Source: an uncultured cyanobacterium | Lineage (GTDB): Bacteria > Cyanobacteriota > Cyanobacteriia > Cyanobacteriales > CAWCAG01 | Length of the DNA: 64,000 nucleotides | Direction of reading: 5' to 3' | NCBI GenBank assembly: GCA_963803805.1 | Contig: CAWDOD010000007.1 | Coordinates: forward strand, 32,001-96,000 | Part shown: one piece after another, positions 12,989 through 64,000 of the stretch | Layout: each line of letters opens with the position of its first letter | How positions within the stretch are numbered: position 1 is the stretch's first letter | Position numbers and translations under genes: made by a program | Notes under the pieces: generated by a model | What the model saw: only the letters and a program-made list of their open reading frames with translations | What the model was told of the DNA's origin: nothing | Databases searched by the model: none

Positions 12989-13004
12989 AATGTGATATTA
13001 TAAC

Positions 13005-15143: not shown

Positions 15144-15149
15144 GGAAAA

Positions 15150-15221
15150 AGCCGATGGAGGGATTTGAACCCACGACCCATCGCTTACGAAGCGATCGCT
15201 CTACCACTGAGCTACATCGGC
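15150..15221 (-). tRNA. trnT: tRNA-Thr(CGT)
   Basis: GCCGATG TA GCTC AGTGGTA GAGC G ATCGC TTCGTAA GCGAT GGGTC GTGGG TTCAAAT CCCTC CATCGGC: a complete cloverleaf. Confidence 0.95.
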
Positions 15222-15289
15222 ATTGCCAATTAATTATTATAACCTATATTCAGTTGTCACCATTAGCAATTAGCTATTAGCAACTAGCA

Positions 15290-16093: not shown

Positions 16094-16274
16094 AATAAAC
16101 TTACAACATACCTGAAATAAAAGGAGATTTATTAATCCTAAAAATGTTAGTTATCAACATTGAAGCTTTTAAAAAAAAGAGTTTCGTATAATGCTGCTAA
16201 AACTTACACCAATCAACTTCAAAAAAGTCTTGCTGATTTACTGACTTGGTTAGATAATAATTGACTAATTGAAC

Positions 16275-17804: not shown

Positions 17805-17930
17805 AGAGAGTGTCAATTAAATATTGACGGCTAAGGGGGTAAGGGGCAAAAGGTATTACTTATTACTTCTCCCCATCTCCGTAAGTCCTATAAATTTGTT
17901 TTTTGTAGTATCCATAATACAGAAGATTTT

Positions 17931-18231
17931 TAAACTCTGCAAGCAGGTGGGTTGCAGTTCAGTTGCGGGCTAATGGTTCTCCTTAACTGGATTAAGAATG
18001 TCTTACAGGAGGCTTTGCCAAAATTACCCTTGGGCATTTCTGACAAAAACGTACTACATTCAAATATGCCGTTCCTTAAACCTTGCTGACATCCTTCTTA
18101 GGGGAATACAGAAGGCAAACGAAGGGACATACTCAAGTTAAGGAGGGGGGCATTAACACTGGCTTCTTCCCTGTTGTAACTCCTACCCACGAAGCAATAG
18201 AAAGTTACAAGCACCTACATTGCAGAGTTTA
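17931..18231 (-). ncRNA. Putative 300-nt multibranch structured RNA of unknown class
   Basis: Perfect 12-bp closing helix (17931-17942 with 18220-18231), nested 7-, 7- and 10-bp long-range helices and three hairpins. Several plus-strand A-C mismatches become G-U pairs on the minus strand. Confidence 0.7.
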
Positions 18232-18320
18232 CTAAACATAACGGACTCGAACCGTCTGAGGATTTCTCCCGTACCAGATTTTGAGCTAAACGCTCCCTTG
18301 ACCACAACAAGGCGCCTATT
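18232..18320 (-). ncRNA. Degenerate tRNA-like element
   Basis: Canonical T arm GACGG-TTCGAGT-CCGTT, preceded by hairpins CCTTG/CAAGG, GAGC/GCTC and TCTG...GGA-GAAA-TCC...CAGA; weak acceptor stem. Confidence 0.5.
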
Positions 18321-18337
18321 AACCCTGGCAGGGGTGT

Positions 18338-18410
18338 TTAAAAGTACAGGAATTGAACCTGTTACCGATCGATTATGAGTCGATTGCTCTAACCAAATGA
18401 GCTAACTTTT
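18338..18410 (-). tRNA. Atypical tRNA or tRNA-like element with CAT anticodon (Ile2-like arm)
   Basis: AAAAGT TA GCTC ATTTGGTTA GAGC A ATCGA CTCATAA TCGAT CGGTA ACAGG TTCAATT CCTGT ACTTTT. The acceptor stem is only 6 bp and A/U-rich, and no CCA is encoded. Confidence 0.75.
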
Positions 18411-18487
18411 TGGTGTTTGATGTAGGAGTCGAACCTACCCTCGCCGATAGAGACATCGGCTGCTCTCACCAACTGAGCTAATCAAAC
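18411..18487 (-). ncRNA. tRNA-like element with non-canonical anticodon loop and encoded CCA
   Basis: GTTTGAT TA GCTC AGTTGGTGA GAGC A GCCGA TGTCTCTA TCGGC GAGG GTAGG TTCGACT CCTAC ATCAAAC A CCA: perfect stems with an 8-nt anticodon loop. Confidence 0.85.
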
Positions 18488-18597
18488 GGTGAAACTAGCG
18501 ACAATTGCAACTGCGGTATACGCTCAAGCCAAAGGTTGGCGCACCCGTTGGGCATACGGAACCCAAACGATAGCACTGCAACGTACTACTACCTCAC
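18488..18597 (-). ncRNA. Putative 110-nt branched stem-loop RNA
   Basis: 5'/3' pairing GTGAGG/TTTCAC and TTGCAG-TGC/GCA-G-TTGCAA encloses hairpins CGTTTGGG/CCCAACG and GTGCGC/GCGTAT; GC-rich against the AT-rich flanks. Confidence 0.5.
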
Positions 18598-18602
18598 TAC
18601 TT

Positions 18603-18611
18603 AATATAACA
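18603..18611 (-). promoter_or_regulatory. Candidate extended -10 promoter for the RNA array and slipin gene
   Basis: TGTTATATT (TGn-TAnnnT) lies 5 nt upstream of the first paired base at 18597. Confidence 0.5.
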
Positions 18612-18712
18612 CGAGATAAAATTACTTGATTTAAGTTTTTTTACTGATAGCAATTCTATTGGTTTACTGTATAAAACATTACGCCCTCACCAGCACCTAA
18701 AAAATACTGTCC

Positions 18713-19891
18713 TTAATCAAGCAACTGTTGTAGCCTTTGGCTAAAAGCCTCGTAATTAAATTTAGCTAAAGATTGCGATCGCAACCACTCACCGTTACAG
18801 CGTTGATCATTTCCCCGCAATATTTCTAAACAAGCCTGTACCACTGCTTCTGGATTTCTATGGGGGACTTGCCAACCTAAATGCCCATCTTGTAATGGAT
18901 CTGCTGAACCATCACTATCTCCAGAAAGTACAGGAATACCACAAGCCATGGCTTCTAGATAAACAATACCAAACCCTTCTTGAGAAGGCATAATATAGGC
19001 ATCAGCAACTCGATAATGTTCTACTAGTTCTTCAATAGGAACAAAACCAGCAAAAATCACTTGCTCCGCCACCCCTAAATCTTCAGCTAACTTAGCTAAT
19101 CTAGGCTGATCATCCCCCCGTCCAATCACTAAATATTTTACTTGAGGAAATTCTGTAATAATTTTGGGTAAGGCTCGGATGGTAACGTCAACGCCTTTAT
19201 AAATATCTCCAGACCATAACCTCGCTACAGTCATTAGTACTTTACTATTTTCTAAACCATATCTGGCAATTAGCCTGGGAGATTTTACTCCTGGGGTAAA
19301 AACTTCCCCATCAATAGCACAGTAGAGAAACTTAACTTGTTGGGGATTAATATCATTAGCTTCACAGAGGCGATCGCGGCTATAACGGCTAATTGTCCAA
19401 ATTTCGGCCGCTTCTTGCAAAGCACGTTTTTGATTAGGGGGCAGAGGTTCCCAAACCTCCTTACCGTAGGTCAAAACTGTATAGGGAATACCTTTAAACT
19501 TGCATAATAACTGTATCAAAGGTGCAAGATTAATATGACCACAGAAAACTCTTCGAGGCTTATTTCGCCACAGGAAAGTAACTAAGGAGGCCATCAAATT
19601 GAACCGCGATCGCCAAGGAGTTGCCCCCTTGAGATAATGAAACTTCATCCTACTCCCTTCCCAAGGATTATTATCCCCAGAACTGTCCCTTAGTAAGAAT
19701 ATTTCCCCTTGTCGAGAAGGAGTTAAAGCCAGATAAGCTTGTAAAATATCTTTAACGTAGGATTGAATCCCCCCTTCCTGAGAGAAAATCTCTAGGAAAA
19801 CGAAAGCATCATCTACTGTAGCTTTAACTTTTTTAGTCACATCATTCTTGACAATCTGAAGATTTACGGTAGAAGAACTATTTTTGAGCAT
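18713..19891 (-). CDS. Glycosyltransferase family 4
   Basis: GGIQSY, YKGVD and EGFGIVYLEAMACG motifs. Confidence 0.9.
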   Translation of the reverse strand: MLKNSSSTVNLQIVKNDVTKKVKATVDDAFVFLEIFSQEGGIQSYVKDILQAYLALTPSRQGEIFLLRDSSGDNNPWEGSRMKFHYLKGATPWRSRFNLMASLVTFLWRNKPRRVFCGHINLAPLIQLLCKFKGIPYTVLTYGKEVWEPLPPNQKRALQEAAEIWTISRYSRDRLCEANDINPQQVKFLYCAIDGEVFTPGVKSPRLIARYGLENSKVLMTVARLWSGDIYKGVDVTIRALPKIITEFPQVKYLVIGRGDDQPRLAKLAEDLGVAEQVIFAGFVPIEELVEHYRVADAYIMPSQEGFGIVYLEAMACGIPVLSGDSDGSADPLQDGHLGWQVPHRNPEAVVQACLEILRGNDQRCNGEWLRSQSLAKFNYEAFSQRLQQLLD

Positions 19892-49367: not shown

Positions 49368-50924
49368 ATGGCAAAATTGACTAGCAAGGCTGCTTTAATA
49401 CTGAGCGTATTAACACTCACTACTTGGAGAGGAGAAGCAACTCAAGCGGCTGAACCCAGCTTAGGAAGTTCTTTCACCCAGTGGTGTCTCCAGAAAGATA
49501 ATTTGTCAACTGGAGCAATTAGAACTGTAGATGTACTGTTAGAAGAAGCAGGGACTACTGATTGTGAATCTGCTAATAACCTGTTATCAAGCCGCACCCA
49601 ACTTGACCTCAGCGACTCCGACATTATAGATGTCACGCCTTTAGCAGGGTTCACAAACTTAGAGTACCTCAATCTCAGCGATAACCAAGTTACAGATGTC
49701 ACTCCTTTAATCAGACTCACGAATTTAGAGGTACTTGACCTTGAATCTAACAAAATCACGAATGTTACTCCAATAGCCAGACTCACGAATCTATCGGGAC
49801 TCGGCCTCTATGCCAATAAAATCAGAGATGTCACGCCTTTGGCTAAACTCACAAACCTAGAGGGGCTTTACCTTGGCAATAACAAAATCAAAGAAATAAG
49901 TTCTTTAGAACCGCTTACCAACCTGAAGATACTCAATCTCAGTTTCAATGAAGCTAAAGATATCAGTCCTATAGCAAAATTTACACAACTAGAGGAACTT
50001 TACCTTTACTCTAACCAAATCTCTGATATTAATTCTCTAACAAAACTTGCCAGTTTGAAAGTCCTCAACCTTGGCGAGAATCAGATCACAGATATCAGTT
50101 CTCTAGCAAAACTGACAAATCTAGACGAACTTGACCTCAGTTATACCCAAATCAAAGATTTCAGTTCTCTAGCAAAGCTTACATATTTAGAAAAACTTAG
50201 CCTCAACGGTAATCAAATCACGAATGTCAGTTTTCTAGCAAAACTGACAAATTTAGAGATGCTTAATATTGGGGACAACAAAATTATTGATTTTGCACCT
50301 CTAACTAAACTCACAAATCTAGAGTTTCTCAATCTTTATAGCAGCCAAACTACAAATCTTGCTCCTTTAGCAGGACTCACAAATCTTAAGAAGGTTATCC
50401 TTTGGGGCAGCGAAATTACTGATATCACTTTTTTAAGGGGACTTACCGATCTAGAGTATCTTGACCTCAGCTTTAATCAAATTGAGGATATCAGTATTCT
50501 GGCAGAACTGACAAATCTGAAAGAAGTTTACCTTCCAAGAAACAAAATCACTGATATTAATTCTTTGAGGGGACTTACTAATCTTGTGTCGCTTTCCCTT
50601 GGAGAACAGAAAATTACAGATGTTACCCCTTTGGCGAGACTCATAAATCTAGAAATACTTTCCCTCAACAATAATCAAATTAAAGATGTTACGCCTTTAG
50701 CAGGACTCATAAATCTAAAGACGCTTTTCCTCAACAATAATCAAATCGCAACTGTCAGTCCTCTCTCAGAATTAACTAATCTAGAAATACTTACCCTTCA
50801 CAGCAATCAAATTACAACTGTCAGCCCTCTATCAGGATTAACCAATCTAAATCGACTTGTCATTAGGGACAATCCCGTTACACAGCCAGTTTGTCCGATT
50901 AATAAACCTGTTTGCGTCTTTTAA
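49368..50924 (+). CDS. Secreted internalin-like leucine-rich-repeat protein
   Basis: Signal peptide, Cys cap (FTQWC...TDC), and about 19 repeats of 22 aa (LTNLE.L.LS.NQI.DV.PL). Confidence 0.93.
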   Translation: MAKLTSKAALILSVLTLTTWRGEATQAAEPSLGSSFTQWCLQKDNLSTGAIRTVDVLLEEAGTTDCESANNLLSSRTQLDLSDSDIIDVTPLAGFTNLEYLNLSDNQVTDVTPLIRLTNLEVLDLESNKITNVTPIARLTNLSGLGLYANKIRDVTPLAKLTNLEGLYLGNNKIKEISSLEPLTNLKILNLSFNEAKDISPIAKFTQLEELYLYSNQISDINSLTKLASLKVLNLGENQITDISSLAKLTNLDELDLSYTQIKDFSSLAKLTYLEKLSLNGNQITNVSFLAKLTNLEMLNIGDNKIIDFAPLTKLTNLEFLNLYSSQTTNLAPLAGLTNLKKVILWGSEITDITFLRGLTDLEYLDLSFNQIEDISILAELTNLKEVYLPRNKITDINSLRGLTNLVSLSLGEQKITDVTPLARLINLEILSLNNNQIKDVTPLAGLINLKTLFLNNNQIATVSPLSELTNLEILTLHSNQITTVSPLSGLTNLNRLVIRDNPVTQPVCPINKPVCVF

Positions 50925-50979: not shown

Positions 50980-51927
50980 ATGCAGCGAAAATACCTTTCC
51001 TATTTAGGAACATTTTTATTTAGTTCAGGGCTACTGGGTTTAGCCACTTGGACGATTAGCCGCGAACTCAAAAATTATAGCCATCAAGACATACTCCAAA
51101 GCTTCCAAGCCTTACCAAGCGATCGCCTGTTTGGGGCGGTAATTCTCACCATGCTTTGTTATGGAGTAATGACAGGATATGACACCCTAGCAATGCGTTA
51201 TATTCGTCACCCCTTACCTTACCGAAAAACTGCCTTTGCTGCTTTTACTAGCATTGCCATTAGTAATAATATTGGTTTTGCTCTTTTGAGTGGTGGTGCT
51301 ATTCGTTATCGCCTCTATCGCCCCTGGCAGCTATCAAAACTAGAAATTGCTCAAGTCATTGCTTTTGGCAATCTTAGCTTTTGGTTAGGAATGTTAACAG
51401 TGGGGGGAGTTTTATTTATTTTTGTACCTTTGGATGTGCCTCAATTACTAAATTTCCCCCTTGCTTCAATGGATTTATTGGGGGGAATTTGTCTTGCTGT
51501 GGTCACTGGCTACTTCATCTTTAGTATTTTAGCTCGGCATAAAACTTTTCATTGGCGAGGTTCGGTGTTTCGAGTTCCTTCTCTTGCCATTGCCATAACT
51601 CAAATTACTATTGCTACAGTTGATTGGGCTTTGGCTGCTGGAGTTCTTTATCTACTTTTAGATATTGCTTCAGTGTTATCTTACTCTACTTTTTTTGGCA
51701 TTTATTTACTAGCTCAATTAGCTAGAATTATTAGTAGTGTTCCTGCTGGATTGGGCATCTTAGAAACTGTGATGGTATTAATGTTAGCCCCCCAAGTACC
51801 TACAGACAAAGTTTTGGCAGCTTTGCTAGCTTATCGAGGTATTTACTATCTATGCCCTTTCGTCATCGCAAGTATTTTAGTTGGTTGTTACGAACTTCTC
51901 CGCCGTCACCGTAAAAGTAGGATGTAA
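50980..51927 (+). CDS. Lysylphosphatidylglycerol-synthase TM (MprF N-terminal / UPF0104 flippase-like) protein
   Basis: TGYDTLA, GGAIRYRLY, VPAGLGILE and LLAYRGIYY motifs; no synthase domain. Confidence 0.85.
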   Translation: MQRKYLSYLGTFLFSSGLLGLATWTISRELKNYSHQDILQSFQALPSDRLFGAVILTMLCYGVMTGYDTLAMRYIRHPLPYRKTAFAAFTSIAISNNIGFALLSGGAIRYRLYRPWQLSKLEIAQVIAFGNLSFWLGMLTVGGVLFIFVPLDVPQLLNFPLASMDLLGGICLAVVTGYFIFSILARHKTFHWRGSVFRVPSLAIAITQITIATVDWALAAGVLYLLLDIASVLSYSTFFGIYLLAQLARIISSVPAGLGILETVMVLMLAPQVPTDKVLAALLAYRGIYYLCPFVIASILVGCYELLRRHRKSRM

Positions 51928-52018: not shown

Positions 52019-54196
52019 TCATTGGGCCTTACTTCTGACCGACTTCGTACCGGGCCCTCCGCCTCTACCTCTATTAAGATCCCCCAACAAACTGCTAATA
52101 ATATCCACAGCTTCATCTCCCCTAGTCTCCAAAACTCCCTTCCGTGTACCTCTTCCTCTAGCAATAGAGCGCAACTTCAACAAAGCATCCTTCATCGCAA
52201 CTTCACTAAAAATCACTAACACCTCTGAAACCGTAGTTTCTTCAGCTACAAAAACAAAGCTATCCTTATCAGGGTCAGGAAGTAGCAGAGTTTCCTTTGC
52301 CCCAATTTTATTAGCTGTCTCTGCATACTCTTCATCCCGCAACTCCTGAAGCGAAGAAAATTCGTTAGGATAAAGTACAAATAACTCCCCACGAGGGTCA
52401 ATTAAAATTGCGCTAACAAAGAGTTCCTTATCCTCATTATTAACAATCTTCAATTGAAAGAACTCGTTGAGAGGTATAGAGTTGGTATCCCCGCTTCCAC
52501 GTTGCTGAGAAGAAACAGAACAATATTGAGCCTCTTTTGTACAACTGCCCCGCGCAGTAAATGCTTCTCCTAATATCTCTTTACCGCTTTCGATTTGCAA
52601 CGTTACTCCTACATCTAAGTGAGAAGATCGACCATTAATGGTTGTAGAAATTAGCCTAGCAGCGAGGAGAGATCTTAGCTTGCTGTTAAGACGTTTAATG
52701 GCTTCTTCTATTGTCTCTCCTGCCTTGCCAAAAGAATCGGGGACTACCTCTAAAGCCGGGGAAAATAAGCCGATGCTGCCTTCTGAAGGAACTTCCTTTG
52801 CCCTAACTTGATCGCTATAGCTTGGTGTCATGCGACTGAGAATATACTGCACATTCTCCGGGTAGGGTTCTGCTGCTGTTTGATAGGGGATTGCTTTGAG
52901 GCGTTTTAAGTTTGCAATTGCTTCCCCGGCCGTACTCGCATCTGCCCCTAATGAAGGGTCAAGACCAATTTTCAGCATAAACTCAGCAGGAATAGTCCGT
53001 GCAAACTCCTGTAATAAATCCCCTGGTTTAACATTACCTTCGAGGACTTTGTATCCTGCTTGCAAACCATTGCGAGAAGTTACTTCCACCTTGGCACTGG
53101 AAGAACTAACAAAAATTGCCCCCTCCCCACTAGCTTCTATGGCTTTGCTATCGACTCCTCCTAACCAAAGTTGGGGCTGATTACCTGGAGTGTTGATAAC
53201 TACTGCTTCTGTGGGGGCGACCTGAGATTCTAGTAGGTATACAGGCTGGTTTTGTAATGAAGCTGGTTGGGCTTCACTTTTGGCTATCTGATTTAAAGCC
53301 AGGAGAGCTAAATTACCATTAATCAAGTCAATAGTCTTATCTACATCTGTACTTTGTTGCCAAAGGGATTGAGTAAGTAGATAGGTAAACGCCCCAGCAT
53401 GAAACTCAGGGAAATTATAATCAGCAGCAAGTTGGTTGCGTCGTGCTGATGAAATCGCAACCCCTGTGGCTATACCTTTTTGCCTAAGTTCGGAAAATTC
53501 TGAGGAAGTTAACTTCAAATCTTTTAACAAGCGTTCCTGATATTCTCGCTCTTCGTCCCCAACTTGCTTACCTTCTCCATCTACAGCACGGATTTTAACG
53601 TTGCCCCTTGTCCCCCCTCCAGAATGACAACTATCTAAAACTACAGTTACATTTTCGGTTTTTTGCTTCAACGCATACATGAGAAGAAAGAGGGTGCGTC
53701 CGGTGATATCATTAACCACCTCCTCTTCTAAATCAGATGAGTCATCAGAGGGAACAAAAGTGCTGTTGCGGCGATATTCTGGGTCAGGAGATTCAGGATC
53801 AGCTACTTCCGAACCATGACCAGAAAAATGGAAAACCACCACATCTCCTGGTTTAGCTTGGGCGATTAAATGTTCCTTAAAAGCAGTTAGAATCCCCTGG
53901 CGAGTAGCCTGTTGATCTGTAATAGTCAGGATGTCCTTTGCTTGGAAGCCGAAGCGGTGCATTAAAAGATGTTTTTGTAGTTCTGTATCTTGGACACAAC
54001 CTAAGAGTTGACCAAAACGTTCTGTCTTAGGATAATTATTAATCCCCACCAATAGGGCAAGCTTACGGGGTGTATTCTGAGCTAAAACTTTACCATAACG
54101 AAGGCTTTGGCTTTGCAGTTCAAACTTGCTTAAGCCCAGAGTAGCTAATGCAGAACCAGCAAATTGTAAAAAGTGACGGCGCTTAATCTTTGTCAT
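52019..54196 (-). CDS. Tat-exported caspase-family (C14) peptidase with C-terminal DUF4384-like region
   Basis: KRRHFLQ Tat motif, ALLVGINNY, and HFSGHG / DSCHSG catalytic dyad. The true C-terminus may be frameshifted and end at 51982. Confidence 0.88.
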   Translation of the reverse strand: MTKIKRRHFLQFAGSALATLGLSKFELQSQSLRYGKVLAQNTPRKLALLVGINNYPKTERFGQLLGCVQDTELQKHLLMHRFGFQAKDILTITDQQATRQGILTAFKEHLIAQAKPGDVVVFHFSGHGSEVADPESPDPEYRRNSTFVPSDDSSDLEEEVVNDITGRTLFLLMYALKQKTENVTVVLDSCHSGGGTRGNVKIRAVDGEGKQVGDEEREYQERLLKDLKLTSSEFSELRQKGIATGVAISSARRNQLAADYNFPEFHAGAFTYLLTQSLWQQSTDVDKTIDLINGNLALLALNQIAKSEAQPASLQNQPVYLLESQVAPTEAVVINTPGNQPQLWLGGVDSKAIEASGEGAIFVSSSSAKVEVTSRNGLQAGYKVLEGNVKPGDLLQEFARTIPAEFMLKIGLDPSLGADASTAGEAIANLKRLKAIPYQTAAEPYPENVQYILSRMTPSYSDQVRAKEVPSEGSIGLFSPALEVVPDSFGKAGETIEEAIKRLNSKLRSLLAARLISTTINGRSSHLDVGVTLQIESGKEILGEAFTARGSCTKEAQYCSVSSQQRGSGDTNSIPLNEFFQLKIVNNEDKELFVSAILIDPRGELFVLYPNEFSSLQELRDEEYAETANKIGAKETLLLPDPDKDSFVFVAEETTVSEVLVIFSEVAMKDALLKLRSIARGRGTRKGVLETRGDEAVDIISSLLGDLNRGRGGGPGTKSVRSKAQ

Positions 54197-54297
54197 ATTA
54201 TTTTCTCCTTTAACTAGATAAATAACCTAATCTATATTTCTTAATTTCTCATCAAGTTGTACTGATTTTTTCATTTATAAAAATATATCGTTAAATT

Positions 54298-54466
54298 GGC
54301 GTTGCTGAATGAGTAATGATTTAGGTGATCGCAGGAACAGTAGTTCATCAATTTCTGTAATTTTAGGTATCTCTTCTTCTTCAGATATATCTGGTAGTTC
54401 CACTCCCGCTTCCTCAATCGAGTTCATGATTGTCGTATGGTGAATTTCTGTAACTCGTTCAATTCC
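54298..54466 (-). mobile_element. Internally deleted IS1-family remnant
   Basis: Minus strand 54466-54341 encodes GIERVTEIHHTTIMNSIEEAGVELPDISEEEEIPKITEIDEL, recognised as the cyanobacterial IS1 transposase HTH/DDE junction. It is joined directly to an end ...ATTCAGCAACGCC. Confidence 0.75.
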
Positions 54467-54563
54467 TCATTTTCAAAACTACGACGCTTTTTCATGTCTC
54501 ATTTGAAAATGCTATATGCTTCAGCATCATTTATAAAATTTTTGGTATGGGAGCAACTCAATG

Positions 54564-54725
54564 GGGAGCATCTCAAATTGGTAAATATAGGCTCTGGCCG
54601 TTGACTTGATGAACAAAAAGTTCAAAGAAGCAGCAATAAATGTATTCTTAAAGCTAAGAGCTAATAGCTAAGAGCTAATAGCTAACCTCACAGATCAACT
54701 GTTTCTGCAAAATTGAGATGCTCCC
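54564..54725. mobile_element. 162-bp MITE
   Basis: Perfect 13-bp terminal inverted repeats GGGAGCATCTCAA / TTGAGATGCTCCC, flanked by an 8-bp direct repeat ACTCAATG (54556-54563 and 54726-54733). Confidence 0.9.
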
Positions 54726-55245
54726 ACTCAATGTTCGTTTATTGTTTGTTTTTTAACTTATACAGCTTAATCCATACAGGTTATCAAAATAAATTTTGTA
54801 TCAATTTTGGCAATTGATACAAAATCTTCAAACCTGCCTCTTTTAGGTAATTTTACTCTCGATAATGCCAAGAAAATACTTTGAGCAAGGAATAAACTGA
54901 AAAATTTATTCCTTGCGACAACATTAACGCACACATCAGCTTTTTAGTATTAATTTAGCGTTCTTGAGAGAAAAACAACTTTTGAGAAACCGACTAAAAA
55001 GTCTGAAATACTTTGCAAACGCATTGCGTATTTATAGATCATTTCTCTTTATTGAGTGCTAGACTTTGCTCCCTTTTAAGTTGCTTTAGGGAAGGGGAAA
55101 AGTCATGTTTGTATCTACAGCAAAATTTTTGGTAATTGATATTATCACACAGTCTTATTTAGTCGGTAACGCCATAAATCAAATCCTATCCTTTTCAAAC
55201 CTAAAACACTCAGCATTTACGCAAACGTATTCTTGGTAAGTAAAT

Positions 55246-57696
55246 ATGGCACGTCAAACCTCTAAAAATACAACCAAACTATATTGGCTTTTCCTCAGTA
55301 CTGCTTTGATAGTCAGTGGCAACTTCCGGTTAATTGCTCCTGTTATAGCTGGTACTCAAGCTGGTCAAGAGATTAAAAACACTGCGACGGCAACTTATCT
55401 AGATCCTACAAATCCTCTCAATATTATTAATGCAACTTCTGACACTATCACCATAACCGTAGCGGAGGTTTCAGGTGTTACCGTCACTAATGCTGGTGTT
55501 ACCGATAGTAATGGTGGCAAAATTGCACGGAATGATGAGATTTTTTATGATTACACCGTTACCAACGTAGGTAATGACCCAACTCAATTGTTTATCCCCG
55601 ACGAAGATAATATCAATATCAACGGCCCTGGTACTATCACCTCTGTAGATGCAGACTTAGATGGGGATGGCACATTTGAAACACAAGTTCCTACTGGCGG
55701 ACTAACTACCACTACTCTTGTTGCTGCTGACGATTCAATTCAAGTAAGGGTAACAGTTACTGTTGATAGCAATGCTAACTCTGGAGAAACTATTGCTGTA
55801 CAACTTGGTAACACTCCAACTGATGATGGTACAAGCCAGCCTTTAGTAGATGACGGTGATAGCGACTTACAAACTATTGATGATAGTACTCCTACTCCAG
55901 TTAACGGTGAAAGTGAGACTAGCATCACTCAAGAAGCTACAGTGGAAGCTTCGCCGACAGCGTTAGCGAAAGTCCTCAAGACCCGAACTAACCACGATAA
56001 AGGAGATCCACTCGACATCACAGACGATGTTCTTAGCTATGCTCTTAGTTTACAGGTTGAATCTAGCGATCCCACAGGTACAGGGATCAATCCTGCACCT
56101 CTAGCTGGTATAGATATTAACGTTGATGGTATCGTTGAGGCTCATATCCTGATCTCTGATGCTATTCCTACAGGTACAGAATTAGAAGGTACAGCCGTTG
56201 CACCCAGTGGTTGGATTGCCGTCTATACCGATAGTCCCATTGCGACTGCTGCTGTAAATGTTAACTGGAGAACTAATCCTGCTGATTTAACTGGCCCTGT
56301 AACCCGTGTTGGTTTCATAAATGATACAGTAGCTACTGTTGCCACAGGTCAAACCGTTAGCGGTTTTAATCTCAATTTAGGGGTTATCGCCACGGCAACT
56401 TCACCTTTAAATGTAGCAAACATTGCCCAGGTATTTGGTGCTACTGATGGAGTTCCTGATATCATCATTTATGATGAATCTGGTGACCAAAATCCCAATA
56501 ACTACAACCCTGTTGATGGTACTGTAGATGGTTTCGATGCCCTTACTGACACAGGTTTACTTAATGCTTTAGATTTAACAGCCTTAACTGCTAGCGTCGG
56601 TATTGATACCAACAATAATAACACCGGTGATGGCCCTGGTGGTGAAGCTAGCTTTATTGAAATTGCTTTACCTGCTGTAGGGGATATCTTAAATGGACCC
56701 AAAGATGTTGCTGATGCTATCGGTCCAACGGATAGTAACGATGACTTTACTAACAAATCCACACCGATTATTAAATACACCAAACCTGGTTCTACTATTG
56801 ATCCTGATCCAGTAGACTTTATAAACACCTTTGTTAATACAAGTGGTCAGTCTGCTGATGTCACCTTAGAACCAGTTGCCCCCGCTAATCCCCTTGATCT
56901 ACCGGATCAAACTGTAGTTACCATCACCGCAGTAGATATTCTTACACCCACCAACCCGATTAAATCTGCTACTTACCGGTATGATCAAGCAACAGGAACC
57001 TTTACCCTCACCAATGGTACACCAATTGTCTTTAACAACCCTCTACCTCTAGTGGGTGGTCCTGGTAAAGGCGTACTTCCTAATGTTCCTGTTGCCTACA
57101 ACGTGGAGATCGACTTACCCAGTGATACACCTCTTTCTACCGATACCCTTGAAGATTATACTGGGGATACAGAATTTGGTTTCCCTGTGGGAATCGTCGC
57201 CAAACTAGACACTGACGGTAATGGCACTTTTGAAGCAGAAAATACCACCATCGACAGGGCTTACACCGGCTACCTCAAACTGGAGAAAACCTTCCAAATT
57301 CTCCAAGGAGATGGCCCTACAGTTAGTGATCCTACTGCTCCTCCTGCACCGGGTAACATCATTGAGTACACCGTCAAATACAGTAATATTTCCACTCCTG
57401 GCGGCGGTATAGGCAACATTGGCTTAAATGCAACCACGGTAATTATTACTGAAGATGGTGCTGATGCGGCTATTGAAAATAACTGGGCATTAGATAACGA
57501 TAGCAACGGTGAAATTGATACTAGCCATGTTGTGGGACAAGCAAGTGATAACAACGGCGGTATCGTTACGTACTTTGACCTTGGTGGTAGTGTTCTAGAT
57601 ACAGTAGGTGTAGATATTACAAGATATCTAGACACAATCTCTAATGTTGCCCCTGGTGCATCGGGTGAGTTTACCTTCCAACGCAAAGTCAATTAA
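55246..57696 (+). CDS. Secreted multi-Ig / DUF11-like surface protein, candidate major fibre subunit
   Basis: Signal peptide; N-terminal GQEIKNTATATY; YTVTNVGND, ISDAIPTG and PGNIIEYTVKYSN motifs; C-terminal PGASGEFTFQRKVN; T/D/G-rich. Confidence 0.8.
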   Translation: MARQTSKNTTKLYWLFLSTALIVSGNFRLIAPVIAGTQAGQEIKNTATATYLDPTNPLNIINATSDTITITVAEVSGVTVTNAGVTDSNGGKIARNDEIFYDYTVTNVGNDPTQLFIPDEDNININGPGTITSVDADLDGDGTFETQVPTGGLTTTTLVAADDSIQVRVTVTVDSNANSGETIAVQLGNTPTDDGTSQPLVDDGDSDLQTIDDSTPTPVNGESETSITQEATVEASPTALAKVLKTRTNHDKGDPLDITDDVLSYALSLQVESSDPTGTGINPAPLAGIDINVDGIVEAHILISDAIPTGTELEGTAVAPSGWIAVYTDSPIATAAVNVNWRTNPADLTGPVTRVGFINDTVATVATGQTVSGFNLNLGVIATATSPLNVANIAQVFGATDGVPDIIIYDESGDQNPNNYNPVDGTVDGFDALTDTGLLNALDLTALTASVGIDTNNNNTGDGPGGEASFIEIALPAVGDILNGPKDVADAIGPTDSNDDFTNKSTPIIKYTKPGSTIDPDPVDFINTFVNTSGQSADVTLEPVAPANPLDLPDQTVVTITAVDILTPTNPIKSATYRYDQATGTFTLTNGTPIVFNNPLPLVGGPGKGVLPNVPVAYNVEIDLPSDTPLSTDTLEDYTGDTEFGFPVGIVAKLDTDGNGTFEAENTTIDRAYTGYLKLEKTFQILQGDGPTVSDPTAPPAPGNIIEYTVKYSNISTPGGGIGNIGLNATTVIITEDGADAAIENNWALDNDSNGEIDTSHVVGQASDNNGGIVTYFDLGGSVLDTVGVDITRYLDTISNVAPGASGEFTFQRKVN

Positions 57697-57769
57697 GGCA
57701 TTTTGCTACACCAATTATTGTCGCCTACTTCCCTTCAAAGTACTAATTTGTAACTCACAGAGGTTTATT

Positions 57770-58327
57770 ATGAAACGTTTCTTCCTTAGTCTCAGCGCGA
57801 TCGCCCTTGTTGCTACAGTTCCAGTTTTAGCTAGTTCTCCAGTACAAGCTAGTATCCGTGAAGCAGGAACTAAAATTGCCCAATTTCTTGCTCGTCCTGA
57901 AGTTAAGTTAAACTTAGCCGCAGCTAAGCGTATGGTGAAAGTTGATGATTCTGGCAATGAACAGGTTAACTGGGAAGATATTGCCCAAGAAGCAACGGTT
58001 GTACCGGGGGATGTCCTCCGCTACACAGTCACTGGTGAAAATGCTGGTGATGCCACAGCCAACAACTTTGTGATCACCCAGCCTATTCCTACGCAAACCA
58101 TGTATGTTTTAGATTCAGCAGCTAGTAGTAATAGTGCCACTGTCACCTACAGCATTGATAACGGTACAACCTTCAGTGCAGAACCAACTATTCAAGTAGA
58201 TGATAACGGTACATTGATCGAGCAACCTGCACCGCCTGAGTCTTATACTCACGTTCGTTGGAGCTTTGAGCAGTCTCTAGTGGCTCAAGAAGAGGTGCAA
58301 GCTTCCTACGAAGTAACCATTAAGTAG
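57770..58327 (+). CDS. Small secreted DUF11-like single-domain protein
   Basis: ATG 57770 after an AGAGG RBS; signal peptide; PGDVLRYTVTGENAG, YSIDNG and YTHVRW motifs. Confidence 0.82.
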   Translation: MKRFFLSLSAIALVATVPVLASSPVQASIREAGTKIAQFLARPEVKLNLAAAKRMVKVDDSGNEQVNWEDIAQEATVVPGDVLRYTVTGENAGDATANNFVITQPIPTQTMYVLDSAASSNSATVTYSIDNGTTFSAEPTIQVDDNGTLIEQPAPPESYTHVRWSFEQSLVAQEEVQASYEVTIK

Positions 58328-58463
58328 CAATAGAGAATCACATCAAATCCAGTGTGAATGGGGAACGGGGAACAGGTAATGGGCAATAGTTTTATCCCAA
58401 CTCCCCATCTCCCCATCTCCCCTTCTCCCTAAGCGCTTTAACTAGTTTGAAACTTACTTACCC

Positions 58464-59963
58464 ATGGAAAGAAACAAGCTGCTATTTTCAATTTCCTCTC
58501 AGCACAAGCTATCTACTTTCCTGAATCTTGTAGCAATCTTAGGCTTAGGAACAAGTTTAATAGGCATTGATGCCACCTTAGCTCAAGGTAACATTTCTTT
58601 CCAAAACCAAGCTACCTACACTTATCAAAACTCGGCTAACCAGACTCAGTTACAAGGAGTTTCTAATCAGATTGAAGTTAACACCCTCGACTCATCTTTA
58701 GTTGATCCTTTCGGGCAGGTTTTGGGTTGTAATGGTGAACCCTTGTTAGATTACACAGGCTTTTCCGTTAGCTTATATACTCCTGCTGCCAACGCAACCA
58801 CTGGGACAGAACTAGATCAGTTAGTTCCTTTAACGGCAACAGAGTTACCGGATGTAGCAGGTAATGACCTTACTCAAGGGGTAGAACCTAACATCAGCAA
58901 TGTTAATCCTTTTTCCCTTAGCAATACTACTCAAGGCAAGTATAGCTTCCTCTTAGATAGTAGTAAAGGACAACTGATACCAGGAACAAGCTATATTTTC
59001 GTAGTTAATCCCCCTACTAATTCTAACTATAGTCAGCGACGGGTCAAGATAGAAATACTAGCAAATAATAATGGGAAAGTCAGTTATAGAGCCAGTTCCC
59101 TAGATGGCCAACCTATTACCTCTCAAGGCCAAACTCAAATTGATGACACCCTGGTTAATATCTCTGAAGCCAACAAACAAGGTGTTATCCTAGCTGCTTT
59201 GCAACCTCAATTAGTACTGTGCAACCCTAATCAAATTGAAATTATTAAAACAGGGGATCGCGCTGTTGCTGGACCTGGAGATACGGTACTCTATCGTCTT
59301 ACAGTGAGAAGCAAATCTGATGCGACTCTCAACGCAATTAAGATTAACGATTATTTACCCCCTGGTTTTAAATTTTTACCTAATTCTGTGCGGGGTGAAT
59401 TTCAAGGGCAACCCCTTTCTATCAATGCTACTAACCATGGTAATGAGGTTGACTTTGAAATTGCAGCAAATCTCTCTCCCCAAGGTGTAATCAACCTTGT
59501 TTATGCGGCTCAACTTACTCCTGATTCTTTAAGGGGTTCCGGAGAAAATTCAGCAGTTGTGAATGCTAAGCGTCTTGACAACTCTTTCCAGGTTAAAAAT
59601 GGCCCGGTTATCCATCGTTTGCAAATCAATCCTGGCATTCTTTCTAGTTGCGGCACTTTGCTCGGTCGTGTCTTTGAAGACCATAACTTTGATGGTGAAC
59701 AACAGCCTGGTGAACCTGGCATCCCTAATGCAGTAATTGTGCTTGAGGATGGCAACCGTATCACTACAGATACTAACGGCTTATTTTCCGTGGCTTCGGT
59801 ACTTCCTGGCTATCACACAGGAACTCTGGATCTTACTAGTGTACCTGATTATACTATTGCTCCCAATCACTATTTCCGCGAACGCAATAGCCTCTCACGC
59901 TTAGTTAATCTGGCTCCTGGTGGCATGGTTCGCATGAATTTTGCTGTTACTAAAACAAATTAG
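58464..59963 (+). CDS. Secreted DUF11 plus SdrD B-like domain protein
   Basis: Signal peptide; FQNQATYTY; IIKTGD..GPGDTVLY..DYLPPG..GENSA; GRVFEDHNFDGEQQPGEPGIPNA. Confidence 0.82.
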   Translation: MERNKLLFSISSQHKLSTFLNLVAILGLGTSLIGIDATLAQGNISFQNQATYTYQNSANQTQLQGVSNQIEVNTLDSSLVDPFGQVLGCNGEPLLDYTGFSVSLYTPAANATTGTELDQLVPLTATELPDVAGNDLTQGVEPNISNVNPFSLSNTTQGKYSFLLDSSKGQLIPGTSYIFVVNPPTNSNYSQRRVKIEILANNNGKVSYRASSLDGQPITSQGQTQIDDTLVNISEANKQGVILAALQPQLVLCNPNQIEIIKTGDRAVAGPGDTVLYRLTVRSKSDATLNAIKINDYLPPGFKFLPNSVRGEFQGQPLSINATNHGNEVDFEIAANLSPQGVINLVYAAQLTPDSLRGSGENSAVVNAKRLDNSFQVKNGPVIHRLQINPGILSSCGTLLGRVFEDHNFDGEQQPGEPGIPNAVIVLEDGNRITTDTNGLFSVASVLPGYHTGTLDLTSVPDYTIAPNHYFRERNSLSRLVNLAPGGMVRMNFAVTKTN

Positions 59964-60033
59964 GCAAAAGTCTATAGGCAATAAGCAAAAGTAATTACCT
60001 ATTTAAAATTATTTACCTTGAGGGGAAAGAGTT

Positions 60034-63000
60034 ATGCTCTACTCTGATGTATTAAAGACAAGTAAGGGGAAAAATTTAGTTGTACTGTCGGCAATACTGA
60101 TAGGAAGTGTTAACTCACTTTGCGCCCCTCAAATAGCCCAAGGACAGGAATATGTAGAAATTATTCCTGAAACAAAGACAGCAACTCAGTTTGTAGAATC
60201 AGAAACAATAACGTCAGAAACTGTTTCCAACCCAATAGATGAGACAAAGGAAATCGACCTTCCTAATAACAATGCTTCTGAAAAGACTACATCAGCAGTC
60301 AGCATCCTTTCTCCTACAGTTAACAGCATTTTAGATCAACCGGCCGTCACAGTAGTGGTTCAGTATCCTAGGGATGCTGAAATAGAACTAAGAGTTAATG
60401 GACAACCAGTAGATCCTAAACTAATCGGTCGCACAGAAACTAACTCTGCTACGCAATTAATTACCCAGACGTGGTATGCTGTGCCTCTCCAGGCAGGAAC
60501 TAACAGTCTCAGTGCCAACTTATTAGGTCAGCCAGAAACCTTAACTACCACTAGTTTACAAGTAAGAGGACAGCCAAGTGAACTAATGGTCGCCACTAGG
60601 GAAACAAGTATAGATGCTGATGCCCGCTCTACAGCGATAGTGCAAGGTCAATTACAAGACGATAATGGTAACTTAGCTAATTGGGATGGTACTGTCACCC
60701 TAAGTACCAGTGCTGGAGAGTTTGTAGAACCAGACCAAGACTTACAACAACCCGGTTTTCAAGTCAAAGTCACAGATGGTAAATTCCGCACTATCTTACG
60801 CTCAACTTTAGAAGCCCAAACTGTCACTATTCGCGCTAACACCAGAGAGTTAGAAGCCTATACTCAACTACAATTTAAAACTGCATTGCGTCCTAGCTTA
60901 GTTTCTGGAGTTGTTAACATCCGTTTGGGAGCTGGTGGTACAGATTTCTACGATAGTTTCCAAGACTTCCTACCCTTAGATGAGGATGATGATTTTGTCT
61001 TAGATTTTAGTAGCGCTGTCTTTGCTACTTTTCCCATCGGTGAATGGCTATTCACCGGGGCTTATAACAATCAACGCCCCCTTAACCTTGATTGCAATTG
61101 TGACAATCGTCTCTTTCGCAATTATCAAGCCTCAGAAAACCAGTATCCTATCTACGGTGATGATTCTACTTCGGAAATTCTCGCCCCTTCTATAGATAGT
61201 CTCTATTTGCGTCTAGAACGCTCCTCTCCTGTGGTAGGAGCCGCGCCAGATTATGTCATGTGGGGAGACTATAACACCTCAGAGTTTGCAAACCCTTCCC
61301 AATTTTTCACCGCAACAACTCGCCAACTCCACGGCTTTAAAGGCAATTATAATTTAGGCAATCTCCAAGTTAGTGGCTTCTATGCCAACAACACTGAAGG
61401 TTTCCAAAGAGACATTCTCAACCCCGACGGTACTAGCGGCATCTATTTTCTCTCCCAAAGATTGCTAGTTCCTGGTAGTGAGGATGTCTTTATTGAATTA
61501 GAAGAATTAACCCGCCCTGGAACAGTTCTGCAACGAGAACGATTAAGCCGGGGTGCAGATTACGAGATTGATTATGATCGAGGAACGTTGAATTTCCGTG
61601 AACCGCTGTTGCGTACTGATATCGATGCAGAGGGGAATATTTTAGTACGCCGACTAGTGGTTAGTTATCAGTTTGAAGATGGCGGAGAAGATACTAAACT
61701 TTATGGCGGTAGACTGCGCTATCATCTTTCCCGGAATTTAAACCAGGAAAGCTGGTTGGGCGCTACCTATCTTAAGGAGGAACAGGGTGTGCGGGACTTT
61801 GAACTGTACGGTGCAGATGTTTTGCTTTCTCTAGGAGAAAAGGGACGTTTTACCGGTGAATATGCCCATTCTCGCCATAATTCTCCAGAGTTAGGTGCTA
61901 CTGCTGGTTCGGCTTATCGTTTACTTCTAGAAGGGGAAGTAAGTACAGGAATTGCTGGCCGGGCTACTATCAATCCACTGATAATGGTTTTGCTAACCAA
62001 GCAACGGCAAGTTTTGTTCCTGGACAAACTCGTTACGGTGCAGAGTTGCAAGCCCGCCTTTCCCCAAATACTCAATTGAGGGCCAAATATGACCAGGAAA
62101 GTAATCAAGGTAATAACCAGCAAATTCTCACTCCCATCGGTAATGTGCTAGAAGGGTACACCTTAGAAGGTAGTTTAGATAGCTTTCAATCCCAAACTGA
62201 GGTAAATAATTCCCTCACCACCATTTCCCTGGGAGTGCAACAAAAAATTTCTACTGCTACTTTAGATTTTGATTGGATTTATCGCCAACGGGAAGACCAA
62301 ATTAATCCTAATCTAAATAGTAATTCCCAACAGTTGCGATCGCGATTAAGCCTACCCTTAACAGATAATCTTACTTTCCGAGCGCTCAATCAATTAACCT
62401 TAAGTGAACAGACTGATGCTGTTTACGGCGATCGCACTGCTGTAGAGTTAGATTGGCAATTTCTTCCTGGTGTTAATCTCCTATTAGGACAAAATTGGTA
62501 TACGAAAGGGACGCTTGCTGGTAGTTCCATTACTAGTTTGAGTTTGCAGGGTGATTATAATTTTAGTCCTAATACTCGCTTAACAGGGCGCTACAGCCTT
62601 TTAGGGGGTGAGAATGACTGGACGGGACACGGGGCAATAGGATTACAGCATGACTGGCAACTTACCCCTGGTTTAAAGCTTAATCTGGCCTACGAACGGA
62701 TTTTTGGTAACTTTGGCAGCAATGTTATTGGCACAGGAATTAATCAACAATCCCTGACTACAGGTAGCAATAGTTCTGTTTTAGGAGTCACAGAGGGCAA
62801 TAGCTACAGTGTGGGTTTAGACTATGCCAGCGATCCTAACTTTCAATTCTCAGCTAACTGGCAACATCGTTCCTCATCCCAAGGCAGCAACACAGTTATT
62901 TCTGCTTCTGCCCTTGGTAAAATTACCCCCAGTTTATCAGCTTTGTTAGATTTCCATCACGCTAGTTCTACTAGTCCGGCTCTGAGTGGCTTAGGAAGTT

Positions 63001-63527
63001 CGACAGATTTAAAGCTGGGTCTAGCTTTCCGCGATCCCCACAGTGATGAATTTAACGCTTTGCTTAAGTACGAATATCGTCGCAACCCTGCCACCATTCC
63101 TGATACTATTTTATTCGGCAGTGGTACAGGATCTCAAGAACATCTTTTCTCCGCTGAAGCGATTTATGCTCCTAATTGGCAGTGGGAATTTTATGGTAAG
63201 TATGCTTTCCGTACTAGCACTACCTATTTAGCGAATGATTTTGTTGCTAACTCTATAGTTTCCCTAGCACAGCTAAGGGCTACTTATCGCCTTGGTTATA
63301 GTTGGGATTTAGTAGGAGAGGCACGCTGGATCACTCAACCCACAGCCGGCTACAGTGAAACTGGCTTTCTTCTGGAAACGGGTTACTATCTAACCTCTAA
63401 TTTACGCTTGGCAGCAGGTTACTCTTTAGGGGATATTAGTGATCGAGATTTTAGTGGTTCTCGTTCTGCTGGTGGCCCTTATGTGAATCTTACTCTGAAA
63501 TTCGATGATCTTTTCTTTGGGAATTAA
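60034..63527 (+). CDS. Large outer-membrane beta-barrel protein with N-terminal Ig-like domains, split by a frameshift at about 61964
   Basis: ORFs 60034-62079 and 62046-63527 join with one added base to read AGRAYYQSTDNGFANQATASFVPGQTRYGAELQARL. YPIYGDDS and DYEIDYDRG motifs; many amphipathic beta strands up to the C-terminus. Confidence 0.75.
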
Positions 63528-63768
63528 GCATTGGACATAAATTACAATGTCTTTTGAAACATACAACATCAAGATAGTAGCCTATCCTTCTTGAGCATTG
63601 ACATTTAACACTAACAAAAAATCAAAAATATACACAGGAGAATCTAAACTTTCTCAAAGAGAAGGTAACTAATATTTAGTTTGGGAGGTAAAATGCTGGT
63701 TATCTCTCAAAACCAAAAATTAGGTCAATGTCTGCTTAGTATGACCTCAAATTCTCTGAGATTAATTA

Positions 63769-64000
63769 ATGAGAAGCCACCAGCAGAGCCGCAAATTCAG
63801 TTTTCAACCATTGAAGCTCTCAGCAACCTTATCAAAAAGGCTGCATCAGAGCTTATTCGTGATCCCTGCAATCATTACTAGTACCAGCTTTTATTCCCCT
63901 CTAGTTAGCGCCCAGTCTATTATTAGGGAAGCAAACAGTACAGGAACGATAGTTAACCAACAAGGTGATATTTATCAGATTGAGGGTGGAACTCAAGCAG
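63769..64000 (+). CDS. Filamentous-haemagglutinin (TPS) N-terminal domain protein, partial
   Basis: Stop-free frame from ATG 63769 to the window end: signal-like region, then VSA-QSIIREANSTGTIVNQQGDIYQIEGGTQA. Confidence 0.75.
   Translation, partial: MRSHQQSRKFSFQPLKLSATLSKRLHQSLFVIPAIITSTSFYSPLVSAQSIIREANSTGTIVNQQGDIYQIEGGTQA

Follow-up and report, generated by a model that had tools for sequence, protein, structure and literature searches.

Two halves of one domain at opposite ends of a secreted cyanobacterial protein: a candidate shaft subunit for a covalent surface fibre

In a stretch of 64,000 nucleotides from an uncultured cyanobacterium (contig CAWDOD010000007.1, positions 32,001 to 96,000; hereafter “the window”, to which our coordinates refer unless another locus is named), one gene encodes a secreted protein of 816 residues, A816, whose last domain lacks its Asn strand and whose mature N-terminus resembles the piece that is lacking there. 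This raises the question of whether both ends belong to one and the same domain and, if so, whether they meet within a chain or between successive chains. A preliminary description of the locus had opted for the latter, in the form of a “split DUF11 domain” polymerising head-to-tail by donor-strand insertion, with an intermolecular isopeptide bond. Our analysis of sequences and predicted structures supports the view that the C-terminal domain of A816 is split and that the N-terminal segment supplies what this domain lacks. Moreover, we consider it somewhat probable that A816 forms the shaft of a modular surface fibre, or adhesin display, of filamentous cyanobacteria, in which subunits would be complemented by donor strands and locked by isopeptide bonds. 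Within this reading, we infer the bond, the assembly of A816 in trans, the polarity of the fibre and the roles of the partner proteins from the evidence given below.

Of 8000 candidates scored in the search for homologues of A816, 1167 had E ≤ 1e-3. Representatives were defined as clusters at 50% identity (472 at the same threshold), and residue counts were taken from 150 of these, 130 of which span both ends of the protein. In an alignment of 51 sequences of the family (A1), the mature N-terminus reads “..(E)GT-x-AG-x-x-I-x-N-T-A-T-A-T-Y-E-D-P..SNTV-x-V-T-V”, with I43, N45 and Y51 invariant, and a conserved “..APVLA(E)GT” stands ahead of this motif, while all proteins terminate at “F-T-F-Q-R-K-V-N”. 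Of the 149 other representatives listed, nearly all that are full-length have the N-terminal motif directly behind the signal peptide. In A816, the strand singled out by the preliminary description is IKNTATATY (residues 43–51, with Asn45). The C-terminal domain carries its lysine, K681, on the first strand (LKLEKT, 677–682) and an acidic residue, E736, on the strand “VIITED”, and the chain stops at FTFQRKVN (809–816) without an Asn strand, as had been described. The complete Lys, Asp and Asn set reported for an internal domain was likewise recovered (AKVLKT at 241–246 with K245, ISDAIP at 303–308 with D305, VANIAQV at 390–396 with N392). As features of sequence, those named at the outset exceed chance by far.

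In a few proteins, the two halves are contiguous. This is the case for five of the 149 other representatives listed (P0133, P0151, P0156, P0233, P0235) and for giant open reading frames (ORFs) in two genomes (L092 in G023 and L093 in G230), one of which is a single contig of 3.67 Mb; because the ORF of G230 matches P0235 over the junction stretch, the distinct contiguous proteins number at most seven, perhaps six. Their junction consists of “..F-x-F-x-R-x-V-N”, a linker of seven residues and “I/L-x-N-x-A-x-A-x-Y-E-D..SN-x-V”, with no signal peptide in between; in the window protein, seven residues (G36–E42) likewise separate the inferred cleavage site from I43. P0233 has unrelated cadherin domains immediately behind the two donor strands, which implies that the missing piece is limited to these strands. 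Wherever the halves are contiguous, the chain runs straight on from the donor strands into the next domain, as expected of a joint made head-to-tail. Separately, we observed that the giants (1400–2700 residues; L092, L093, P0133, P0156, P0235) contain the C-terminal half of the A816 unit, together with the donor strands, in the form of an ordinary contiguous stalk module, which adjoins RTX, cadherin, beta-helix, FG-GAP or DUF4347 parts.

Profile comparisons bear on the kind of domain that is split. When the contiguous domain was compared with DUF7925 using hhalign, “FIFQRQVNQTTAGQ-LITNTANATY” fell on “GFNLNLGVIATATSPLNVANIAQVF”, Asn on Asn, in a weak alignment (E = 2.9e-4, probability 41%). 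Taken alone, the N-terminal segment gave no signal against DUF7925 or against the DUF11 domain of a protein encoded downstream, C499 (probability < 1%), and the C-terminal domain gave a weak one against the same two (3–7%). The DUF11 family proper (PF01345) has no match in A816 (E ≤ 0.01) nor in the contiguous domain of the five fused proteins (E ≤ 1); the C-terminal domain of A816 has no Pfam match at all, DUF7925 being the sole Pfam family in the protein, and a search with its profile against all PDB sequences returned no match at E ≤ 10. Hence, of the “split DUF11 domain”, the split stood, as it is backed by natural contiguous versions and by a predicted complex (see below), while the DUF11 label had to be dropped.

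The Lys, acid and Asn of the split domain are almost invariant. In the 130 representatives spanning both ends, the counts are 129 for N45, 128 for K681 and 127 for an acid at position 736 (E in 118, D in 9). Both misses for K681 are fused giants misaligned by MAFFT; without these two, the 128 split proteins have K681 in all cases, N45 in 127, the acid in 127 and all three residues in 126, the exceptions being P0191, which lacks the Asn, and P0253, which lacks the acid. This is stricter than for the internal DUF7925 triad, complete in 109 of 129 representatives. When the five fused proteins were read directly, the Lys turned out to be kept in three and replaced by Thr in two. The loss of Lys in two of five contiguous versions against none of 128 split ones gives a Fisher p of 0.001, a rough figure that makes the contrast look stronger than it is, since relatives are not independent; nevertheless, a Lys lost only in continuous chains is the pattern predicted by a covalent lock for a nicked domain. 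Moreover, in the natural fused proteins the elements follow each other in a single chain in the order K..E..N, and the conserved triad of the split proteins corresponds to that of CnaA-like domains, with Lys on the first strand, Asp or Glu on a central one and Asn on a late one.

Two other candidate residues were considered and rejected. The preliminary description had located the acid in ITED (734–737); the motif is present, and its better conserved acid is E736 rather than D737, as the latter is D in only 93 of 130 representatives (P0107, a member of A1, reads E-N, and P0151 reads E-A). As for Asn816, the last residue of the chain, just 70 of the 130 representatives have N there (K in 22, Q in 9, D in 7, others), and some proteins have short tails beyond it.

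The fit of the two halves was studied by complex prediction with ESMFold2, using rows of A1 and pairing residues 660–816 (acceptor) with residues 37–236 (donor). As this partner chain included both the donor segment and its own first domain (D1), the strand could choose between D1 and the C-terminal domain. The interface score (ipSAE, interaction prediction score from aligned errors) was 0.84, 0.84 and 0.85 in three runs, the best of three controls reaching 0.01; 58 of 80 solved complexes and two of 110 mismatched pairs reach the mark that we used, but these calibration counts are only rough here because our own alignment was supplied. At least 95% of the contacts are common to the runs, and the partner chain has a predicted local distance difference test (pLDDT) of at least 89. 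On the acceptor side, the interface comprises residues 675–683 (the strand of K681), 706–712, 727–738 (the strand of E736), 743–747, 809 and 815–816; on the donor side, it comprises residues 37–38, 40–55, 57, 61, 63–68 and 70–75, and D1 touches the C-terminal domain only through residues 109–110, 162 and 219–220. The predicted interface thus agrees with the earlier suggestion that the N-terminal strand inserts into the C-terminal domain and not into its own D1. In the model, the register (acceptor:donor contacts 735:48, 733:50, 736:47, 708:45, 677:51) makes the conserved, inward-facing residues N45, A47, A49 and Y51 share a face with E736, I734 and V732. With the donor fragment, the acceptor chain has a pLDDT of 83–84, versus 70–72 with unrelated partners, and the donor fragment drops from 90 to 59 once the acceptor is replaced. 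Such a pass indicates fit rather than binding in the cell, because halves of one domain tend to pass through their likeness to solved Ig-like (immunoglobulin-like) domains.

To see whether donor and acceptor also occur on separate proteins, we turned to the genomic context. A scan of species genomes yielded 378 loci encoding the family, of which 80, nearly all from filamentous cyanobacteria (among them Nostoc, Anabaena, Calothrix, Fischerella, Coleofasciculus and Leptolyngbya), were kept for counting. In the window, A816 opens a series of four co-directional genes (55246–63527), followed by a small secreted protein (B186), a pilin-like protein of 499 residues (C499) and a large putative outer-membrane protein (OMP); this order is colinear in 68–71 of the 80 loci, where B186 is present in 70, C499 in 71 and the OMP parts in 68–69. 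The features are collected in Table 1.

Table 1. Positions in the window of the A816 gene, its segments and the partner genes.
Feature	Coordinates	Strand	Basis and remarks
A816 gene, secreted multi-domain protein of 816 residues, proposed shaft subunit	55246..57696	+	ORF; donor N-terminus, acceptor C-terminus
A816 signal peptide, residues 1–35	55246..55350	+	Recognised in the sequence by a basic n-region and a hydrophobic stretch; cleavage presumed after PVIA
A816 donor segment, residues 36–75	55351..55470	+	Strands I43-x-N45-x-A47-x-A49-x-Y51 and INATSDTITITV; Asn45 codon 55378–55380
A816 D1, first Ig-like domain, residues 78–236	55477..55953	+	No first-strand Lys; AlphaFold2 strands 78–232
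A816 internal complete isopeptide domain DUF7925, residues 240–420	55963..56505	+	PF25546; K245, D305, N392
A816 C-terminal acceptor domain, residues 675–816	57268..57693	+	K681 codon 57286–57288; E736 codon 57451–57453
B186, small secreted DUF11 protein of 185 residues, acceptor-only	57770..58327	+	Likely Met start 57770
C499, pilin-like protein of 499 residues, donor-only	58464..59963	+	I/L/F-x-N48-Q-A-x-Y-x-Y segment (about 58584–58697), DUF11, SdrD_B
OMP gene, about 1170 residues	60034..63527	+	Window frames 60034–62079 (681 residues) and 62046–63527 (493 residues)

B186 is an acceptor without a donor. It matches PF01345 with 28.0 bits (cut-off 24.6) and TIGR01451 with 34.7, and its domain stops at the strand ahead of the Asn strand. 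In its family, 70 of 71 members retain the Lys, the position of the catalytic acid is occupied by Gln in 69 of 71, and an N-x-A strand is found within the last 30 residues of none of the 71. The preliminary description had noted both the absent final strand and the Gln, in ITQPIP (residues 103–108, numbered from the residue that precedes the likely Met at 57770; the chain ends ASYEVTIK), and the two traits thus turned out to be conserved throughout the family.

C499 is the reverse case: since it combines the donor motif with a complete DUF11 triad of its own, it is a donor without an acceptor. Pfam recognises DUF11 (33.0 bits, cut-off 24.6) and SdrD_B. The start FQNQATYTY, on which its proposed role as a donor had been founded, occupies residues 46–54, and N48, A50, Y52 and Y54 are each conserved in 69 of 69 members, as are K262, D296 and N362 of the DUF11 domain. 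The N-terminal segment resembles that of A816 (hhalign probability 68%, E = 4.9e-5) and has a pLDDT of 41–68 in the AlphaFold2 monomer, versus 76–97 for the rest of the protein. The N-terminal segment of A816 is, by contrast, confident in its own monomer model (75–88), and this difference from C499, which has no acceptor of its own, speaks for the proposed pairing of donor and acceptor. According to Foldseek, the model of C499 resembles the Gram-positive pilins 4p0d and 3kpt (E about 1e-12). Beyond this likeness of C499 to pilins, the Foldseek searches with the whole models of A816 and C499 matched multi-Ig proteins and pilins only generically, at low TM-scores.

The fourth gene is interrupted in the window. 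Its frames switch at 61962–61965, and residue 686 of a homologue aligns in both frames. The protein is a single ORF in L002 (1337 residues) and in L010 (1206 residues), where its start overlaps the stop of C499, while in other loci the parts lie 81 nucleotides apart in the same frame. One public DNA sequencing run, X1, possibly from the source sample, covers the locus, with 11 single-letter differences from the window across 55200–63600, while no RNA run was listed for it, which speaks neither for nor against expression. The contig of X1 (depth 7.3) carries one more C after 61963, so that the two parts share a frame, and the break therefore probably stems from the assembly or reflects a minor variant. 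Pfam matches are weak (Invasin_D3/Big_1 and, for the barrel, OMP_b-brl/DUF2490), and the ESM Atlas holds only automatically named or unnamed clusters. A role as pore or anchor is assumed because of the position in the operon, and export is presumed likewise.

In at least 39 of 68 loci, the gene behind the OMP encodes a variable protein of 735–1190 residues (e.g., L002 19200–21890, L010 18519–22049), the count being a lower bound because the flanks are short. These candidate adhesins contain DUF11, DUF7933 and SdrD_B domains, with a variable N-terminal part and a conserved C-terminal domain that reads “LL-x-KRIT..PGDE-x-EYTIYFLS..CD-x-x-P..SYGFVRFR-x-KVK” and then ends. This tail has the Lys and the Asp in 35 of 35 sequences and an Asn strand in none of the 35, and is DUF11-like by hhalign (probability 81% to B186, 72% to the domain of C499, 4% to the C-terminal domain of A816). 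In the window, the adhesin gene is not adjacent to the operon, but the genome encodes such adhesins elsewhere. The ORF that follows the operon there, 63769–63999 (+), runs past the window edge; it is the start of a secreted protein, without a Pfam match in its 77 residues, and is not the adhesin gene.

A second locus lies on another contig of the same genome (L084, G000:C2:1240000-1259000, positions 8516–18910, and L091, positions 1245–2201; minus strand). It encodes a C499 paralogue of 318 residues starting “QQQ-IENTASAS..SNTITTPV”, an OMP paralogue of 958 residues, a beta-helix-like protein of 426 residues and two adhesin genes with the Lys and Asp acceptor tail. Frameshifts break each of these adhesin genes into several frames, possibly through errors due to the low coverage of the assembly (roughly 7x). 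We found neither A816 nor B186 there, nor any protein with both halves. As the halves sit on different proteins only, complementation at this second locus can occur in trans only.

Based on these observations, we propose the following mechanism. Sec export and cleavage of the signal peptide would expose the two-strand donor of an incoming subunit, about 40 residues long, and this donor would complete the beta-sandwich of the C-terminal domain (675–816) of the preceding subunit. In the rebuilt hydrophobic core, K681 would attack the carboxamide of N45 with E736 acting as catalytic acid, and the resulting autocatalytic, intermolecular Lys–Asn isopeptide bond would lock the subunits head-to-tail. 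C499, having a donor and no acceptor, would close the acceptor end of the fibre, probably at its base near the OMP, and the variable adhesins, with their Lys and Asp tail, would take the donor end. B186 might be a catalytically dead acceptor that holds free donors without being trapped, as a chaperone or a cap, while the OMP, with its approximately 1170 residues, would secrete or anchor the fibre. More tentatively, the whole could represent an unrecognised class of diderm organelle, i.e., covalent pili independent of both sortase and chaperone-usher machineries, in which every joint would be a natural equivalent of SpyTag/SpyCatcher, with interchangeable tips, a shaft, a base, a periplasmic chaperone acting as decoy acceptor and, as passage or anchor for all of these, a new OMP family of about 1200 residues.

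Several points weigh against the fibre. The complex prediction is equally compatible with complementation in cis and in trans, and the pair K681–N45 is absent from the 25 best-defined contacts listed, even though 675–683 belongs to the interface. In the AlphaFold2 monomer of A816, the high pLDDT of the N-terminal segment is as expected if AlphaFold2 had docked the donor on the C-terminal domain of the same chain. The sequence profiles support the fold class weakly, given the modest hhalign alignment and the lack of a Pfam or PDB relative. In C499, a donor Tyr occupies the position of Ala49 of A816, so that it may pair with an acceptor other than that of A816. Finally, the OMP belongs to no known secretion family and has no PDB match at E ≤ 1, and the window copy reads frameshifted in spite of the extra base of the X1 contig.

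The most serious of the other explanations, which we nonetheless regard as unlikely, is self-complementation: the donor would fold into the C-terminal domain of its own chain, and the K681–N45 bond would close a cyclised monomer resistant to proteases and force, such as a ring-closed surface protein or an adhesin stalk. Effective concentration favours the pairing of halves that sit in one chain, the monomer model is compatible with this outcome, the conservation of the triad suits it as well as it suits assembly in trans, and FimA, a subunit of type 1 pili, is reported to have two folding outcomes, a self-complemented monomer and a polymer (PMC6615685). Nevertheless, self-complementation leaves unexplained both the conserved donor-only and acceptor-only proteins of the operon, with their matching motifs, and the second locus. 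It also sits poorly with the linear passage from the donor to the next domain in the contiguous versions, and, as Sec export proceeds from N to C, the donor would emerge before its own acceptor exists. Partners carrying separate halves, in the operon and at the second locus, make the strongest case for assembly in trans, and because of them and of the linear fusion geometry we prefer head-to-tail assembly over self-closure for A816.

Somewhat less likely still is a fixed hetero-oligomer, in which a single A816 would serve as an extender between an acceptor tip (an adhesin or B186) and C499, the three forming a covalent stalk on the OMP. Such a stalk would make sense of a system that has two types of donor and three types of acceptor, and of a second locus that lacks the shaft protein and whose basic unit pairs a single donor protein with a single acceptor protein; besides, close cousins of the true partner can pass the complex test too. 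Against it, the completing strand in the contiguous versions is of the A816 type (small residue at 49) and not of the C499 type (Tyr), and it is the homotypic pair that reaches an ipSAE of 0.84, far above the best control. The least probable alternative is complementation without any amide bond, where Lys, Glu and Asn would form a buried hydrogen-bonded cluster: the bond in A816 is a prediction from sequences and models, B186 retains the Lys without the acid, so that the Lys may have another role, and the N35A oligomers of BsaA, a pilin discussed below, still resisted sodium dodecyl sulphate sample buffer and gel, falling apart only on heating (10.1101/2024.11.04.621531), yet the triad is the same in kind and order as in proven autocatalytic isopeptide domains, is kept more strictly in the split domain than in the internal one, and loses its Lys in just those contiguous versions where a covalent lock is unneeded.

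The head-to-tail fibre that we prefer recalls several known systems without coinciding with any of them. In chaperone-usher pili, the tip (FimH) has only an acceptor, the shaft subunits have both halves and the terminator (PapH) has only a donor. The likeness to type 1 and P pili lies in the incomplete Ig fold filled by the N-terminus of the next subunit and in the OMP encoded in the operon. However, their joints are non-covalent, the subunits studied here are about five times larger and donate two strands, and the candidate chaperone B186 would accept a strand, unlike a chaperone of the chaperone-usher type; moreover, no Pfam or NCBIfam match to a PapD-like chaperone or to an usher was found among the operon proteins. 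The donor-strand scheme of these pili is outlined in general terms in a study on archaeal threads (PMC9715654).

The threads themselves (Saci_0406 of Sulfolobus acidocaldarius) combine donor-strand complementation with an intermolecular isopeptide bond, and the neighbouring Saci_0405, a putative donor-only cap, is comparable to C499 (PMC9715654). Their bond, however, joins the N-terminal alpha-amino group of Asp24 to Asn57 two subunits along, instead of linking neighbours through a Lys–Asn triad of the CnaA type, and the subunit is small, glycosylated and archaeal, with no outer membrane involved. In BsaA of Clostridium perfringens, N35 stands on an N-terminal donor strand, the acceptor provides K74 and E56, and the arrangement was tested by mutation (10.1101/2024.11.04.621531). 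The mechanism is thus alike in its donor-strand Asn, its acceptor Lys and catalytic Glu, and its autocatalytic, sortase-independent intermolecular bond formed after insertion. The protein itself is a small, single-domain, TasA-like pilin of a Gram-positive host that depends on the signal peptidase SipW, whereas mature A816 is about 780 residues long, with five or more Ig-like domains and a split domain that resembles DUF11/DUF7925 (CnaA-like) and receives two strands, and it belongs to a diderm whose operon adds a large OMP of its own and separate donor-only and acceptor-only proteins. No Pfam match to the TasA/BsaA (camelysin-like) family was found in A816, so that the likeness is one of mechanism only.

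Sortase pili (BcpA, T6, SpaA) share multi-domain Ig-like pilins, intramolecular Lys–Asn isopeptide bonds and covalent links between subunits. There, a sortase joins the threonine of a C-terminal LPXTG to the lysine of a pilin motif, whereas the link proposed here would form autocatalytically in a rebuilt domain; none of the chains has an LPXTG (they end ..QRKVN, ..EVTIK and ..AVTKTN), and no match to a sortase family was found among the proteins scanned at the locus. SpyTag/SpyCatcher is an engineered split of the CnaB2 domain, in which a reactive strand and a part carrying the Lys and the catalytic acid form a bond spontaneously on docking; the pair is mentioned in the abstract of 10.1101/087593. 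That pair was made by man from an intramolecular domain, while the split in A816 appears to be natural and old, judging from the 472 representatives and the matches in 44 of 401 genomes sampled from the phylum, and is used at both ends of a protein.

The internal domain of A816 is a member of DUF7925, with which the split domain shares the order of its elements and alignable last strands. DUF7925 was built from Q8YS00 of Nostoc PCC 7120, for which an intramolecular Lys264–Asp326–Asn415 bond is predicted in a survey of intramolecular isopeptide domains (DUF7925/DUF11, “CLIPPER”); in the part of it that was available, this survey deals with intramolecular bonds only and mentions neither “split” nor “donor strand” (PMC12617251). 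In our literature search, no paper on the present cyanobacterial system was found, and this survey, whose supplementary tables may list more bonds, is the sole one naming DUF7925 or Q8YS00.

Regarding the rest of A816, the match to PF25546 scores 210.8 bits (cut-off 26.5) and covers profile positions 1–185 of 185, residues 1–36 have an AlphaFold2 pLDDT below 50, and D1 resembles B186 (hhalign probability 86%). The protein is present as a single copy in the genome of the window, and in an even sample of the phylum it is matched (E ≤ 1e-20) in 44 of 401 genomes and 27 of 156 genera. The source databases name the family only “hypothetical”, “beta strand repeat-containing” or “DUF7925 domain-containing”. 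Nine Nostoc loci (L011, L014, L017, L025, L030, L046, L048, L072, L073) encode a lone A816 paralogue of about 795 residues, with the partner genes not nearby. A complete operon of the cyanobacterial type, at 41–53% identity, was also found in a metagenome-assembled genome titled Acetobacteraceae (L015), which is probably a mis-binned contig rather than a sign of presence outside cyanobacteria. When we looked for a minimal subunit, i.e., a pilin-sized protein with the C-terminal domain, the eight matches were mostly partial or on short contigs, and none supports its existence.

Upstream of A816, at about 1 kb and divergent from it, 52019–54196 (-) encodes a protein of 725 residues with a Peptidase_C14 caspase domain (81.8 bits) and DUF4384. 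Farther upstream are a secreted leucine-rich repeat protein of 518 residues (49368–50924, +; LRR_4, 295 bits) and then an LPG_synthase_TM membrane protein (50980–51927, +). A scan of 54100–64000 for consensus promoters and terminators returned fewer sites than shuffled sequences and nothing usable.

What is already known thus includes the predicted bond of the internal DUF7925 domain, donor-strand insertion with an autocatalytic isopeptide bond (BsaA) and the combination of strand, isopeptide bond and cap (threads). New with respect to these precedents are the fold family, the donation of two strands, the size of the subunit, the diderm context with an OMP of its own, and the separate tip-like, base-like and non-reactive proteins. 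A covalent head-to-tail fibre built through a split, self-locking domain has probably not been described so far for bacteria with an outer membrane. The proposal is directly testable in model strains, because the homologue Q8YS00 named in PMC12617251 is from PCC 7120. If it is true, the system would also offer natural orthogonal Tag/Catcher pairs, with two types of donor and three types of acceptor, one of them non-reactive. For the cyanobacteria concerned, it would mean a covalent surface fibre assembled by a route outside the chaperone-usher, type IV, type V and sortase pili, and it would give an identity to a whole operon of “hypothetical” proteins and a function to a new family of large OMPs. 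Finally, it would imply that intramolecular isopeptide domains can become intermolecular joints by the simple nicking of a loop, with both states still extant.

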